Below, piece after piece: positions 9,851 to 56,445 of a DNA stretch of 62,774 nucleotides. The position numbers and the translations under genes were made by a program. This DNA is from Patescibacteria group bacterium. GTDB lineage: Bacteria > Patescibacteriota > Microgenomatia > UBA8517. Position 1 is the first letter of the stretch; each line of letters starts with the position of its first letter. The stretch covers positions 1 to 62,774 of the forward strand of contig JBBRBD010000006.1 of assembly GCA_038206135.1 (NCBI GenBank). The letters run 5' to 3'. The notes beneath the pieces are model-generated. The model worked only from the letters and a program-made list of their open reading frames with translations, did not search any database and was not told the DNA's origin.

Positions 9851-9940
9851 GAGCCTATCGTCTAGCGGTTTAGGACGTACTGTTTTTCTTAAACCTTCGG
9901 GTTAAGAAGTAAAAGACGGGTTCGAATCCCGTTGGGCTCA
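9851..9940 (+). tRNA. tRNA-Glu-like gene whose anticodon loop is replaced by a cUUCGg-capped hairpin (non-canonical)
   Basis: Acceptor GAGCCTA/TGGGCTC, D arm GTCT/GGAC with A14,G18,G19,A21, T arm ACGGG-TTCGAAT-CCCGT; 39 nt between D and T arms instead of ~22-23. Confidence 0.75.
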
Positions 9941-10117: not shown

Positions 10118-10969
10118 TTATTTCTGAATTGTTATCACTCTTTTTGACAAAATGAACTTTGTTTTTATGAATGACAATGCTTCTTGCCGTTCTTCAACTG
10201 TCCCGATCTGGAGAATGTGTAAAAGGTAGTTTTTCGTCATCTCATTTTTATCTGCTGAAGTCTGTGGGATTCTGTTAAATTCCCCTAAATGACCATCGAT
10301 AAACTCCTGATGAAGTACTTGGGTTTTAAGTCGATGATAACGTTCTATATCCTCCTGAATTTTCCTCGTTACTCCAGTGTGATTAAATTTGATTTTGTCG
10401 ATATTAGCGATTAATTGCTTGATTAAGTCATTTTCTGTAATATATGGCTCGTCACACTCATAGTTGAGTGACCTACCGCAGTGATCATAAGTATGTTTAA
10501 CAAATCCACCGTGTTTTAATTTCCTAAGTTTCTCTTCAGCCGTTACACCACCTCCGCATCCACCACATTTGAAGATACTTTTGAATGGGAAGATTTTATT
10601 TTTGTATCCTTTATCAGCAAGAAATGACTCGTCATACTTAGCTAGTAGATCCCAATCAAACTCACCAGTATTTTTATTGAGACGAAGGTTTAATTCCTTC
10701 TCTTTTTCAAGATCAGGAATATCGACATAGACTACGGGTACTGTCTTATATTCAAGTGCTTTAGCTACTTCCCATCTAAAGTGTCCACCAATAATGATGT
10801 TCTTTCGGTCTGTAGATGAATTAGCGATAACTGGGTCAACAAAACCAAAACGCAGTATACTTTGCTTTAGTTGTTCGCTAGCGACATCATCATGTTTGCG
10901 AGGATTGTAATCCGCTGGGATTAAATCGTTGATTAGTACTTCGACCGTTTGGATGGGTATATTTTTCAT
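10118..10969 (-). pseudogene. In-frame fusion of ParB-like N-terminal domain and large serine recombinase C-terminal zinc-ribbon/coiled-coil
   Basis: aa 1-119: YNPRKH...FGFVDPVI...IIGGHFRWEVA (ParB/Srx); aa 120-283: FKCGGCGGGVT...YDHC...C (recombinase Zn ribbon); no catalytic serine domain. Confidence 0.7.
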
Positions 10970-11015
10970 AATTTAACTAAATCTATCATGGGTTTTTGAA
11001 AAACTTGTTTATCAA

Positions 11016-11048
11016 CCCCCTTGACAACGGAGTTGTCACGGAGGGGGG
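11016..11048. repeat. Nested inverted repeat upstream of the ParB fusion
   Basis: CCCCCT-TGACAAC-GGA-GTTGTCA-CGG-AGGGGG. Confidence 0.7.
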
Positions 11049-11280
11049 TATTGATGTTCGATTAGGCCGTTAAATAGGACTATTCTTAATATTTGTTTTA
11101 TTTTCTGATGAATTTGAAAATACCCCTTGACAAGATTTTGTAGAAGTAATCCTTCGGGCTGTAATATCATTAAAAATGATGAGTAACAGTATAAGGACAT
11201 TTATCAACTTAATAGTGCTTGATGTCGTAAAAATGTTTCAGGAAGTGTATAAATTACCATAAATAGCTTAAAATACGGGC

Positions 11281-16388: not shown

Positions 16389-16601
16389 GCAATCATATTA
16401 TATGCTTTTGTGGCCAAAAAAGCCTCTGTTATGTGGTAGAAGAAATAATATATCACTATAATTTTGAGACTCGCTCTTTTTATAGTGTCTCATTTGTCTC
16501 GTTTAGCCTGAAGATGATACACTCAGAAAGACAGTGGTTATAAACCAAGTTTGCAAGCTTTGCTTATGGGACTAAACGGTTCCAGACCCGTATGGCTCAA
16601 T

Positions 16602-16675
16602 CGGACTGTAGCTCGGTGGAATGAGCACTTGTGCATAGACGCAAGAGGGCGTGGGTTCGAATCCTACCAGTTCGA
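16602..16675 (+). tRNA. Non-canonical/pseudo tRNA with 8-nt anticodon loop (C1-G72, A73; Pro-like acceptor)
   Basis: CGGACTG/CAGTTCG, GCTC/GAGC, CTTGT/GCAAG enclosing GCATAGAC, GTGGG-TTCGAAT-CCTAC; lacks U33 and A14. Confidence 0.65.
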
Positions 16676-16760
16676 ATAGGCCAGAAGTGGCCCACCAGAA
16701 CGATCCCCAACGGTTGACTGGTCGAGCGTTATTGCTGGACCAGTCAATGAAAATTTTTGA

Positions 16761-52047: not shown

Positions 52048-52131
52048 AACACTTCACAAATTAAACCTTATAGTTTGACATTCTCATCAAACAGTGATTA
52101 AATTCACTGACCGAAAAAAAGGAGAAATTGT

Positions 52132-52320
52132 ATGCAAAGTATGAATGTAATGCCATTCATCCTGATTGCCGGTGCAATTTGTTTGTTGGCATTAATCAAA
52201 TCACTGTTTCTGGCTGTGAAGTTTGGTGGACTATACGGCTTCCTCGGATGGGTAGCCCTAATGTTCTTTCCACCTTTAGGATGAATTATTCTTATCGGCG
52301 TTGGATTTGTCATCTGGTAA
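52132..52320 (+). pseudogene. Small membrane protein gene with in-frame TGA
   Basis: AAAGGAG SD; MQSMNVMPFILIAG...FFPPLG*IILIGVGFVIW*; TGA at 52282-52284. Confidence 0.55.
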
Positions 52321-52574
52321 ACGAGATGATGCTCCAAATAGTTAAACTCCAAACAGAAACATTTGTTTTGTAATGGAATTTCGAGATACAAGTAGTTTCT
52401 AAAGTTGATGTAAATAGGAGCGCAATAATATGCGCTCCATTTTATTTATTTAAATTCTACAAAAAAATTTTAAAATACTACTTTACAATAACGCAGACAG
52501 CAACTTATAGTTTGCATGTTTTCTTTTCTTTAAGTATAATATCTGCATACGCTGAGTAATATTGGGGGTTAAGA

Positions 52575-52913
52575 ATGTTAAATATTCTCATGAATGTAGC
52601 GGTCAACGCTCTCTGTATTTCGATAATTTGGACAATTGGTTCCAGACCAAAAACACGAACAGTTGTTAGTACTGAAGTGTTTTGTGCAGGACTCGCCGCA
52701 GTGATCATTGCTTGTGCACTAGGTGAGGGGTTTTATTTAGCCCTTTATCGCATTATTGGTATGGAAATAGGATGGCTACTCGCATTTATCATTGCAGTAT
52801 ATCTATTGCAAAAGCTGCCAAATAAGGTCAAAGGAAAATCAAAACACCGTCAAAACATTGAATTTGACGGAGAGGTTTTTCCGATTGTTGACGAGGATGT
52901 CAATAACTTTTAA
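52575..52913 (+). CDS. Membrane protein
   Basis: Three hydrophobic segments, charged tail. Confidence 0.6.
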   Translation: MLNILMNVAVNALCISIIWTIGSRPKTRTVVSTEVFCAGLAAVIIACALGEGFYLALYRIIGMEIGWLLAFIIAVYLLQKLPNKVKGKSKHRQNIEFDGEVFPIVDEDVNNF

Positions 52914-53036
52914 CCGTATTAATTTTTTCACTTGGTTGCCCTCATCAATATTTGATGGGGGTTTTTCATTCCCACAAAAAAAACAGTCTTTGAGTATATC
53001 CAAAGACTGTATCGTATTTTTTTGCCTACTTAAAAG

Positions 53037-53249
53037 CTAATTTGCGGATAGGTTTGCATCTGAGCTTTTGACTACTTGGTCTGCCTGATTCTCAACAGCA
53101 GTAATATTATTCATAAAGTTGCGACGAACGTCAGGGTTAATTGCTCCATGCGCTGTAGCTAGTTCGACATGCGCATACGCAATCATCGCAAGTAGGTTGA
53201 CAATGAGCTTTAACAAATGAATGACTGTACGAACGGCTGTCTTATCCAC
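53037..53249 (-). CDS. Small helical hypothetical protein
   Basis: AGGAG SD, GTG start. Confidence 0.55.
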   Translation of the reverse strand: MDKTAVRTVIHLLKLIVNLLAMIAYAHVELATAHGAINPDVRRNFMNNITAVENQADQVVKSSDANLSAN

Positions 53250-53313
53250 AGTATTCTCCTTAATCGTATAGCATCTTCCTTTCTAATTTAAAAAAATCTG
53301 TTAAAATATCTCC

Positions 53314-53537
53314 AAGTGATCTGAAAGTCCGGCAGTAGTTTCTCATTCCCCTGGGGAGTGCCGACTAAAGGGGGAGATAAGCCCAATCTCAATGATAAGG
53401 ATGTAAATAGTAAAGACTTAACGTCTCTTATATCCGATGCATGAGGCGGAACGAAATCGGCTCATTGAGAAGAGCTTGTTTTTCGGTTTTATAACTCCGC
53501 GGTACGATCACTTCCCAGTCGAAAGACTGGTTTTTTT
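53314..53537 (+). ncRNA. Unassigned ~200-nt structured RNA with intrinsic terminator
   Basis: TAAAAT -10 upstream; AAGTGATC/GATCACTT closing stem; AGTCCGGCA/TGCCGACT; TCTCAATGA/TCATTGAGA; CCAGTC-GAAA-GACTGG-T7. Confidence 0.7.
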
Positions 53538-53561
53538 ATTTTTAAGGCAAAGGAGCCTCTT

Positions 53562-54086
53562 TTGAATGAAATCTTGTGGGTGTCTGGATTTGTAGCTGCA
53601 ATTTGCGCTTGTTTGTTTGTAGTCCTCCCCACATTGTTTGTGGGATTAAACTACAAACATGAGCCAATGAGCATAATCGTTATGGTGCCTCACCTGGGGC
53701 GAATCTTTAGAGTGGGACTGGTCGCAACTGCACTTTTTCTCTTGTTTTTCATAGTCTGGCTTACCATGCGATTTGTAGAATATTCACCGTTTTTAGGAAT
53801 GGCGTTATATGTGTTCGGTTCAATTTGTATGATAGTAGTTGCGTGTATTACGATTGACTCAAATCAGCGAGTACACACCATGTTTACAAAAGGCTATTTT
53901 TTCCTAAGTACTGTTGGAGCACTAGTTTTCAGTCTGACAATACATCAAAGCTTACCAATTGTACTCGCGCTCATTGGAGGAATTGGAACAGCAATCTTGT
54001 ATTTTAAAATGGGTGTAAAGGCATATTCTGAGTATTGGGGGATTACTTTTGCAATTCTTTGGGTACTATCGTTTTACATTCTTTGA
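53562..54086 (+). CDS. DUF998-like multi-TM membrane protein
   Basis: AAGGAG SD, TTG start; SIIVM, RVHT motifs; ~6 TMs. Confidence 0.6.
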   Translation: MNEILWVSGFVAAICACLFVVLPTLFVGLNYKHEPMSIIVMVPHLGRIFRVGLVATALFLLFFIVWLTMRFVEYSPFLGMALYVFGSICMIVVACITIDSNQRVHTMFTKGYFFLSTVGALVFSLTIHQSLPIVLALIGGIGTAILYFKMGVKAYSEYWGITFAILWVLSFYIL

Positions 54087-54135
54087 TTGTAAAAAAATAA
54101 TGCTGGCAGGGACAACCTGCCAGCAGAAATACTTC

Positions 54136-55218
54136 TTACTTTATTGCTTCAATGACAAACAGCTGTTTATCATCTGTATACACACGACAATGTGTTCGCT
54201 GTATTTCTCCGGTTCGTATCCAGTAATTGGCTTTACTTCGATTTATAAATTGTCTTGCAGGTGATACCTGAGAATTTATAAATCCAACTTTTTTCAGCTG
54301 ATCCCGAATAAGCGATTCATCTGAGACAATCGACTTCGAAACATCAAATTGAACAGCCCATTCGTCTACTACTGGATGTTCTACAAATACAATGCGCCCA
54401 CCCGGCTTCAAAAGCCGATATGCCTCTTTAAAAAGGACTGCTCTCTTCTCATTCTTCTCATCGACTGTTATTCCAAATTCATGGAATAATCCATTAGTCA
54501 TAATCAGGTTCTGTGACGCACTTTCATATGTTGTCTTCAGTGCATTTTGTTGTCTAAATTGAATGCCGTAATGTTCAGCAGCAAAACAATTTAAAAATTG
54601 TTTGATGTCCACAATCTCAAAATGCGAATTCGGGAGCAAATGCCGCTTCAATGAATAAATATCACCAACACTCACCGGACTAAAAGCTCCAAAAAACAAC
54701 ACCTGCATTGAATCTAGCGACTGAAATGCACTTGCATATGCAGGAGCAACTGTCGCAGGGGTGAAAAATTGAAACTCATTACTAATAGTCGTAAGCCATG
54801 CCTCACAAATTAGGCAAAAGGTGTGGACAATTTCCCCTAAATTATGTGATTCAAATTCAGACAGCCCCAGATATTTCATCCAAAGCCCGTTACTTATAGC
54901 TCGAGTAAAGAGGTTTGCATCTGCGTTTGATACACTTCGTGCATATTTTCTCCATGCTTGTGGATACTCAAAAAACGTAGATGCAAACGCACCCGTGTAT
55001 GCAGGATTAGATAAAAGCAAATATACGTCTTCCACTTCCTTCTTTACGATTTTTTCAATCGTGAGTGGTTTTGCGTTAAATGTATTGCTTAAATCCAAAA
55101 CACTATTCTGAAGCATAACCAATTGTTCTTGGTAAGAACGGTTATGAAACAAAGTGCTACTATCTCCAAATGTGAGCATTTCTTGTACCTTTCTGGTAAA
55201 GAGCAACGAATAAGACAC
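54136..55218 (-). CDS. Class I SAM-dependent methyltransferase
   Basis: QVLFFGA, IVDI, QNALK, EAYRLLKPGGRIVFVE. Confidence 0.8.
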   Translation of the reverse strand: MSYSLLFTRKVQEMLTFGDSSTLFHNRSYQEQLVMLQNSVLDLSNTFNAKPLTIEKIVKKEVEDVYLLLSNPAYTGAFASTFFEYPQAWRKYARSVSNADANLFTRAISNGLWMKYLGLSEFESHNLGEIVHTFCLICEAWLTTISNEFQFFTPATVAPAYASAFQSLDSMQVLFFGAFSPVSVGDIYSLKRHLLPNSHFEIVDIKQFLNCFAAEHYGIQFRQQNALKTTYESASQNLIMTNGLFHEFGITVDEKNEKRAVLFKEAYRLLKPGGRIVFVEHPVVDEWAVQFDVSKSIVSDESLIRDQLKKVGFINSQVSPARQFINRSKANYWIRTGEIQRTHCRVYTDDKQLFVIEAIK

Positions 55219-55269
55219 GAACAGTCAAACATTTTATCACAACGGCTAATGAAATCTAAAATGAGGAGC

Positions 55270-56445
55270 TTATACTAACTTCAGTTCTTTGTGTGAGAAG
55301 ATTTTAATAGCTAAATAAATGCAAATAGCACTAAGTACACTTGCTCCAATAAATGGCGCACTATTTGAAAGAGTTGCTGCAGCTCCTGCAATGATTGGTC
55401 CTAATATCTGACCAATACTCATATATGAAGTGTTAATGCCTTGCATTTCACCCTGTTCAGTTTCATCAGTTTCTTCAGACAAAATAGTTTGGGTAATAGG
55501 TTGCACAAAATTATTGATAAGCCCAAGCGCTACGCTTGCAATAACAAAGGGGACGATGCTTCGAGTGAAGAACATTACTGCAAAGGTAATCGTTACCCAA
55601 ATAAGTGCAAACAAAAGAGCCTTTTTAACCTTAAAATATTTAAGTGCGCGGGGGAGTAAAAAGAGTTGAGAAATAAGTCCCAATACTCCAAACAAGCTAA
55701 ACAAAAGTGCAATCCCAGAAGCACTCATATGAAGTACTTCCACAGTGGAGCTTTGGAATCCAAATATAAACATTGAAAACGCCATGAAATAAAACAGTGT
55801 CAGTAGAAGCGTCGAACCAACAGTTTTATTCGTCAAAGCAGAAGCGAGTTTTTTCAAATCAAACAATTTAGCATGAGAAAGCTTTCCCATATTTTTATTT
55901 GTTTCTGGCAAAAAGAGGGCAGTAATAATTACAGCAAGCAAAGAAATTGCAGCAGCAATTAAAAATGGAATTGCAGTGCTAATCCCAACCGTTGCCGCAG
56001 ACACTGCAGGACCAAAGATAAAACCAAAGCCAAAAGCAGCACCAATAATTCCAAAGCCTTTGGCTCTATCTTTTGGTTCAGTTGTATCAGTAATGACAGC
56101 AGAAGCCACTGGAATGTTACCCGCAGTTATACCATCAAGCGCTCGTGCCAAAAACAAGAATAGTGCACTCGGGGCAAAAGCCATCATGATAAATGAGATA
56201 ACCGTTCCAGAAATAGAAATAATCAAAAGTGGTTTTCTACCAAACTTGTCTGATAATCTTCCAATGATTGGAGTTGAGAAAAATTGACACAAGGAGAAGG
56301 TCGCAAACAGTATTCCATTTTGGAAATCTGAAAGTCCATATTTTTTAGAATATGAGTAGAGAATTGGAATGATAATGCCGTACCCCAAAGCGTTCACCAC
56401 AGCAATCAAAGCAATGATTAAAAGGTTCTTGTTGTTTTTGAACAT
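55270..56445 (-). CDS. MFS transporter (TetA/DHA1-like)
   Basis: GRLSDKFGRKP motif A, LDGITAG, motif C GFIFGP; 12 TMs. Confidence 0.92.
   Translation of the reverse strand: MFKNNKNLLIIALIAVVNALGYGIIIPILYSYSKKYGLSDFQNGILFATFSLCQFFSTPIIGRLSDKFGRKPLLIISISGTVISFIMMAFAPSALFLFLARALDGITAGNIPVASAVITDTTEPKDRAKGFGIIGAAFGFGFIFGPAVSAATVGISTAIPFLIAAAISLLAVIITALFLPETNKNMGKLSHAKLFDLKKLASALTNKTVGSTLLLTLFYFMAFSMFIFGFQSSTVEVLHMSASGIALLFSLFGVLGLISQLFLLPRALKYFKVKKALLFALIWVTITFAVMFFTRSIVPFVIASVALGLINNFVQPITQTILSEETDETEQGEMQGINTSYMSIGQILGPIIAGAAATLSNSAPFIGASVLSAICIYLAIKIFSHKELKLV

Follow-up and report, generated by a model that had tools for sequence, protein, structure and literature searches.

The window, a stretch of 62,774 nucleotides from a bacterium of the Patescibacteria group, carries what appears to be a real and conserved gene for a structured RNA that is not assigned to any family. 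A conserved unit with promoter-like and terminator signals is present in two differing genomic contexts, it matches no known family and it is rare. Judged from its two known members, this is probably an undescribed and very narrowly distributed RNA family, a new small family of a familiar kind, and it remains a lead. The features of the RNA and of the surrounding DNA are as follows (positions in the window).

52050..55270, no strand assigned: 3.2-kb insert beside tRNA-Val(GAC) that carries the RNA gene and is absent from the same-genus genome G001
53299..53307, plus strand: extended −10 promoter TGTTAAAAT, with the hexamer TAAAAT at 53302-53307, read directly
53314..53537, plus strand: predicted primary transcript of ~224 nt, bounded by promoter and terminator; the structured RNA including its terminator
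53314..53321, plus strand: 5′ strand of helix P1, AAGUGAUC, pairing with 53506-53513
53326..53366, plus strand: P2 hairpin domain, AGUC(C)GGCA at 53326-34 paired with UGCCGACU at 53359-66, with a bulged C
53360..53388, plus strand: most conserved block, GCCGACUAAAGGGGGAGAUAAGCCCAAUC, comprising the 3′ strand of P2, a purine-rich junction and a possible GGG/CCC mini-hairpin
53399..53435, plus strand: hairpin GGAUGUAA/UUAUAUCC with inner AGAC/GUCU, from folding; private to the window copy
53434..53451, plus strand: one copy of the unit CCGAUGCAUGAGGCGGAA, read directly
53446..53500, plus strand: 3′ domain (P5, P6a and P6b), from pairwise alignment with the copy in genome G017 and from folding
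53506..53513, plus strand: 3′ strand of P1, GAUCACUU, with the conserved GGUAC directly before it
53515..53537, plus strand: intrinsic terminator CCAGUC-GAAA-GACUGG plus U7, from a terminator scan
53562..54086, plus strand: ORF for a 174-aa membrane protein with a TTG start and AAAGGAG ~10 nt past the T-rich tail; not part of the RNA family

The RNA is ~200 nt long without its terminator and ~225 nt with it. The promoter element TGTTAAAAT ends 7 nt 5′ of 53314, and the predicted start, at about A53314, is the first base of the closing helix. A simple sigma-70 scan of the locus left this promoter unflagged because its −35 is poor. The terminator hairpin CCAGTC-GAAA-GACTGG occupies 53515-53530, with a T-run that reaches 53537, and on its own it folds with −9.8 kcal/mol. 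Both signals had been proposed in a first-pass annotation of the window and both were recovered, the promoter by direct reading and the GAAA-capped terminator by the scan. The same annotation held that no ORF is present, which is nearly right: a 42-codon ATG frame (53437-53565) crosses the terminator, lacks a ribosome-binding site and is unconserved. The RNA locus has a G+C content of 44.5%; the genome has 38.3% and the nearby non-coding DNA 27-30%. The folding z score is −2.3 for the plus strand (matched by 2 of 200 shuffles) and −2.9 for the minus strand, and the sub-domains give values between −0.4 and −1.8. Folding energy is thus a weak argument for an RNA, and conservation is the stronger one. 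When sequencing runs were searched, the locus sequence was present only in the source DNA run.

The fold of the window copy is closed by P1, an 8-bp stem of AAGTGATC (53314-53321) and GATCACTT (53506-53513 in DNA letters); this stem had been noted at first pass, and both direct reading and folding confirm it. The hairpin that was placed after it stands in its stem, AGTC(C)GGCA (53326-53334) with TGCCGACT (53359-53366), where one C is bulged. The inner TCCCC/GGGGA pairing assigned to this hairpin would leave a loop of 1 nt and cannot form; the fold instead has UUUCUCA/UGGGGAG in the distal part (53339-45/53352-58). In the 3′ domain, P5 is formed by GCGGA (53446-50) and UCCGC (53496-500), P6a pairs 53452-56 with 53481-85, and P6b pairs GGCUC (53459-63) with GAGCU (53472-76) beneath the loop AUUGAGAA (53464-71). 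A long arm, GATAAGC..TCTCAATGA with TCATTGAGA..GCTTGTT, had been drawn across this region. Its letters are in the sequence, but it has no counterpart in the second copy of the RNA and competes with the hairpin 53459-63/53472-76, which that copy conserves. The pseudoknot-type pairings suggested earlier likewise lack a counterpart there.

The second copy came from the homologue search that the first-pass annotation had proposed as a check. BLAST over 60 relatives matched two pieces in collinear order on a single contig of G017, a genome of another genus in the same family, and a covariance model of the 5′ domain (R1) scored the G017 locus at 127 bits (E 4e-22) and the window locus at 95 bits. 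The RNA lies at G017:C20 ~10793-11054 on the minus strand, and each genome (G000, the source of the window, and G017) holds a single copy. The G017 contig CAZMSJ010000020.1 (L035) is publicly titled 'uncultured Gammaproteobacteria bacterium', a label that is probably wrong; G017 shares its family-level group with the 1.1-Mb genome, and EF-Tu and EF-G are 87-90% identical. In the 1.1-Mb genome, L30, L9 and LpxC are absent by tblastn, which is a ground for regarding the organism as Patescibacteria-type.

The arrangement of signals around the RNA is the same in both copies. The G017 promoter, TTGTTA-17 nt-TAGAAT, ends 7 nt 5′ of the same AAGUGAUC, and the terminator starts 1-3 nt past P1 in each copy. 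The P1 core, GUGAUC/GAUCAC, is identical in the two and so displays no covariation, and its 3′ strand is preceded by GGUAS in G017. The P2 stem differs by a single C-G to U-G change and is otherwise retained; its distal part in G017 is an unrelated and longer hairpin, with an 18-nt insert in it. The block that follows reads GCCGACUAAAGGGGGA..AGCCCAAUC in G017, and indels within it, 2 nt in all, are confined to the loop of the predicted GGG/CCC mini-hairpin. The G017 terminator, CCCCAGUC-AAUGC-GACUGGGG, has the same arm sequence and folds with −17.3 kcal/mol. The conserved RNA blocks are 89-94% identical between the copies (BLAST, 89% over query 54-89), with 92-94% in the purine-rich block, whereas the two genomes agree at 80% of positions in tuf DNA and at 79% in fusA DNA, and other spacers do not align. 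Because the RNA blocks exceed the ∼80% of tuf/fusA, the comparison suggests that they are under constraint, with recent transfer as the alternative reason for the identity.

The middle and the 3′ half have diverged further. In place of the single repeat unit of the window copy, G017 has ~3 to 3.5 tandem 18-nt units, CCGAYAUGAYGGGUAWAA; it has no equivalent of the hairpin 53399..53435, and two extra 18-nt units stand there instead. The array, at L003 1416-1470 (RNA positions ~122-176), is a repeat expansion within a structured RNA. A further repeat was seen in the source genome on contig C18 (~560-830), a long heptanucleotide microsatellite of GAATAAC/GAGTAAC units past a coding region. The 3′ halves of the RNA were aligned by a gap-tolerant pairwise alignment, as MAFFT gave no alignment of them. 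In G017, P5 reads GUAGA/UCUAC, with two pairs changed on both sides relative to the window copy, and P6b is a different stem, GAAUUU/AAAUUC, carrying the similar loop AGUGAGACAA in place of AUUGAGAA. Both 3′-domain helices arise in 0.025% of shuffled G017 flanks, a frequency to be read knowing that the anchors were picked after both sequences had been viewed; this result is supportive of a conserved 3′ domain, short of proof. A single-sequence structure model of this domain (R2) skipped the helices, and neither it nor a sequence-only model (R3) was informative. On the alignment of the two copies, a closing helix and a UGAGA-loop hairpin appear to be the conserved 3′ domain, in place of the long arm. 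With two sequences, in which P1 and most of P2 are invariant, covariation statistics do not apply.

The distribution of the RNA is narrow. Searches with R1 over 125 genomes of the family, 139 of the order, 401 of the class and 401 of the phylum found no third member, nor did R1 with relaxed filters, applied to each genome's set of 39 relatives; in all, ∼1,200 genomes were searched. Pattern scans, two of metagenomes, three of viral sequences and one of a genome collection, returned only the G017 contig. Two weak further matches were dismissed as chance, one of them lying within an adenylate kinase gene, as were the viral pattern matches. An origin from a phage or plasmid was considered and rejected, only terminator look-alikes having been found.

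The two copies occupy unrelated places. The insert of the window lies directly 3′ of tRNA-Val(GAC) and consists of several small cassettes, each with its own signals. In G001 the MFS gene, found at 55270-56445 in the window, follows 54 nt past tRNA-Val, and another genome of the same genus, G002, has different DNA at this spot; with the insert absent from one and other DNA in the second, the tRNA-Val site is a variable hot spot. No att-like repeat or integrase was found at the insert, and no transposase, integrase or target duplication lies nearby. The G017 copy lies between tuf and fusA, within an insert of ~8 kb (L034, G017:C20, 4452-12440). This insert also contains pnuC-like and nadR-like genes and an operon that encodes a GT2 protein, a methyltransferase, a membrane protein of 508 aa and an FkbM methyltransferase, and the RNA copy is located just upstream of the GT2/methyltransferase operon, with 78 nt from its terminator to the next ORF. 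The flanking genes of the two copies are unrelated, with no neighbouring protein common to both, and defence and phage families gave no meaningful match among the neighbours.

On the 5′ side of the RNA in the window, the minus strand carries a 70-aa ORF (53037-53249) with a strong AAGGAG site that matches no family and is followed by a bidirectional terminator (52983-53010); its likely promoter is back-to-back with that of the RNA and overlaps it. On the 3′ side is the 174-aa membrane ORF. No promoter of its own was recognised between the RNA terminator and its TTG start, and the gene is probably transcribed by read-through. Its sole homologue, 47% identical, has a tRNA-Leu gene upstream and no copy of the RNA. 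This homologue lies within a tRNA cluster and aligns over 99% of the TTG form, and the public gene call for 53562-54086 (134 aa) begins 40 codons too late.

Two roles for such a unit had been left side by side at first pass, a stand-alone RNA and a riboswitch for the downstream membrane gene. The former fits better, and a self-contained gene for a stand-alone structured non-coding RNA of ~225 nt is the reading that we favour over a leader, at about an even chance of being correct. Transcription would start at ~53314 from the extended −10 promoter and stop at the terminator 53515-53537. P1 would close the fold, with a 5′ domain made up of the P2 hairpin and the conserved purine-rich junction CUAAAGGGGGA..GCCCAAUC, a variable middle of one to three copies of the small repeat unit, and a 3′ domain of closing helix P5 and hairpin P6 with its UGAGA-type loop. 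The RNA would act in trans, most likely as a scaffold or binding partner for a protein; a protein-binding role is suggested because what is conserved in sequence lies in unpaired blocks and loops, whereas the stems are free to vary. The 174-aa membrane gene would obtain its transcript as a by-product of leaky termination. Transcription, action in trans and the protein partner are all matters that we infer.

Several observations support a stand-alone RNA. The generic marks of such genes are present, namely a predicted promoter and terminator, no conserved ORF and a unit kept across contexts. In particular, the 7-nt spacing of the promoter from AAGUGAUC and the position of the terminator 1-3 nt past P1 are common to both copies, P2 tolerates an 18-nt hairpin insert in G017, and two-sided changes of pairs preserve P5 and P6. 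The strong G017 terminator with 78 nt to the next ORF, the 174-aa homologue that occurs without the RNA, the unrelated flanking genes and the raised G+C of the locus (44.5% against 27-30% in the neighbouring non-coding DNA) point the same way. Against it count the modest folding z score, with the opposite strand no worse, and the ribosome-binding site close behind the terminator with no promoter in sight, which is the classic layout of a cis-acting leader. The partner searches also count against it: no protein partner emerged, no gene is common to the neighbourhoods of both copies, and CsrA, Hfq and L7Ae were not found.

The serious rival, and a real, if minority, possibility, is that the RNA works in cis as a leader, be it a riboswitch or an attenuator that depends on a protein. 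Its folded 5′ region would respond to a ligand or protein and thereby set read-through into the 174-aa membrane gene here and into the GT2/methyltransferase/membrane-protein operon in G017. The next gene is co-oriented in both genomes, the genes downstream of each copy have envelope or membrane functions, and a P1-closed fold with conserved junction nucleotides and a terminator directly after it is typical of riboswitches. In the window, AAAGGAG and the TTG start at 53562 stand close behind the terminator with no promoter recognised between them; a gene without its own promoter behind the terminator thus fits the window, while G017 has its 78-nt gap. In each copy the best partner of the terminator 5′ arm anywhere in the RNA is the conserved block CGACUAAAGGGG (−12.1 and −11.7 kcal/mol), a candidate antiterminator. 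However, pairings as good are reached by 16% and 45% of shuffles, so that this candidate is no better than shuffled sequence; the pairing would also cross P1, and thermodynamics favours the terminator state, strongly in G017 (−17.3 kcal/mol). The identity of the genes behind the RNA further disfavours a riboswitch for the downstream gene, since the 174-aa homologue is preceded by tRNA-Leu in place of the RNA and the second copy precedes the unrelated GT2/methyltransferase operon. No known riboswitch model matches, and a varying copy number of the middle repeat would be unusual for a ligand pocket.

It is improbable that the RNA is a relic without present function, whether a remnant of a mobile element, such as an end or a leader, or a gene decaying in accessory DNA. 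Both copies do lie in inserts absent from close relatives, the RNA occurs extremely sporadically, roughly 1,200 genomes having yielded no third copy, and the terminal 8-bp inverted repeat can be read as the ends of a small element. Yet there is one copy per genome, with no transposase, integrase or target duplication nearby, and the blocks are conserved above tuf/fusA DNA where neighbouring sequence cannot be aligned. The retained promoter-to-P1 spacing and terminator, together with the compensating stem changes, point to selection rather than decay.

The RNA is unusual in being accessory and not core: it is found in two unrelated inserts in two genera, while closer relatives are without it. 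Bacteria with ultra-small genomes keep few regulators, and a strongly constrained RNA in a genome of 1.1 Mb is therefore likely to be functional. If it stands alone, it would exemplify an RNA gene that is passed on horizontally without an accompanying protein gene; if it is a switch, it would represent a new response to a ligand or protein, linked to envelope genes. A wider proposal, which has an outside chance of being right, is that the two copies belong to a hitherto unrecognised class of structured, accessory RNAs of ultra-small (CPR-type) bacteria, a self-moving promoter-RNA-terminator cassette that lands in variable islands and serves either as a ligand- or protein-responsive switch for the envelope genes that follow or as the RNA subunit of an unrecognised ribonucleoprotein. 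Function in such a class would centre on the conserved purine block AAAGGGGGAG, which on our own comparison could pair with 11 of 12 positions of the anti-Shine-Dalgarno tail of the genome's 16S rRNA.

Among the families of Rfam 15, only tRNAs matched within the window at the gathering score. At E ≤ 10, a 451-nt slice of the locus gave only noise below 18 bits, and the G017 copy likewise. The Infernal check proposed at first pass therefore yields no family match for either copy, and the description of the locus as a structured RNA that belongs to no assigned family and has promoter and terminator signals of its own holds. Among the tRNA calls themselves, ARAGORN reports one with an undetermined anticodon at 16601-16676, Rfam aligns another (9851-9940) that has a 22-nt insert in the anticodon region, and on contig C2 ARAGORN calls tRNA-Ser(ACT) and tRNA-Ile(TAT). 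That the RNA is a strongly diverged member of a known family, be it a ydaO riboswitch, a retron, a derivative of RNase P, a type III antitoxin or a CsrB-like sponge, is most improbable and largely refuted. In its favour are no more than local similarities: GGGGGA..CCCA is reminiscent of ydaO and the end repeat of retron a1/a2, GAAAGUCCGGCAG resembles a motif of RNase P RNA, and G017 has 18-nt tandem repeats. The lack of any sensible Rfam match in either copy, even at E ≤ 10, speaks against all of these, and each fails on its own account as well.

The ydaO riboswitch, which binds two ligands, has a pseudo-two-fold architecture with two three-helix junctions. Analogous to ydaO (RF00379), the RNA has a P1-closed fold with two similar GGGGA..GCC-type elements in succession, and a terminator is followed by a membrane-protein gene. 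The resemblance, raised at first pass, does not hold: the model does not match at E ≤ 10, the downstream genes are unconserved, and the DAC domain (PF02457) is absent from G000, G017, G001 and G002 while present in 11 of 14 control genomes. With no diadenylate cyclase in the four genomes, a c-di-AMP switch is implausible and was rejected. The other likeness raised then was to a retron msr-msd. An inverted repeat joins the ends, the 5′ part is conserved and the 3′ part varies more, and P1 (53314-21/53506-13) fits the terminal repeats a1/a2, although such repeats are generic to many RNAs. However, no RVT_1 (PF00078) reverse transcriptase adjoins the RNA or occurs anywhere in G000 or G017, so the RNA is not a retron; its neighbours are instead the 70-aa ORF, the 174-aa membrane ORF and the GT2/methyltransferase genes.

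RNase P RNA was considered for GAAAGUCCGG. In that RNA, CR-I (GAAAGUCC) is universally conserved and forms P4 with CR-V. The segment GAAAGUCCGGCAG is nearly identical to CR-I of the genome's own rnpB, GAAAGUCCAGGCAG. Unlike CR-I, it reads GAACGUCC in G017, at a supposedly universal motif, and in both copies it pairs with CCGAC in P2, not within P4. The motif is thus not kept, the rnpB of the genome is a separate 304-nt gene (C4:98295-98598, 106.5 bits), and the RNase P models (RF00010/RF00011) gave no match at the RNA locus at E ≤ 10; RNase P RNA was rejected.

Further candidates were examined and discarded. The genome's tmRNA lies on C2, and the genome has no array that would call for a tracrRNA or other CRISPR RNA. 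ToxI-like antitoxins consist of tandem repeats of ∼34-45 nt followed by the gene for an endoribonuclease toxin; the repeat unit here is 18 nt, no neighbour matches a PADLOC toxin model, and no toxin or defence gene is adjacent. For a CsrB/RsmZ-type sponge, ~4 GGA motifs in 200 nt are near chance by our own count, and tblastn with the CsrA proteins of E. coli and B. subtilis found nothing at E ≤ 1. An Hfq-dependent sRNA and a K-turn/L7Ae partner were set aside since tblastn found no homologue of Hfq or L7Ae. As to an antisense regulator, complementarity across the genome is no more than chance; as to a leader peptide or small ORF, the frames are unconserved and none has a ribosome-binding site; and a mimic of the 16S 3′ tail (GAUCAC..UCC) amounts to a 6-nt match expected by chance on our own estimate.

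The closest parallels are orphan structured RNAs of bacteria that comparative genomics has revealed, such as the raiA motif RNA (RF03072), OLE, ROOL and GOLLD, none of which the RNA matches in sequence or structure, and relative to which its length is similar or shorter. Like them, it appears to stand alone with its own promoter and intrinsic terminator, and it has a multi-stem fold with paired ends in which conserved nucleotides lie in junctions and loops. Unlike them, it is found in two species where they extend over whole phyla, and it resides in accessory inserts where they keep a fixed locus.
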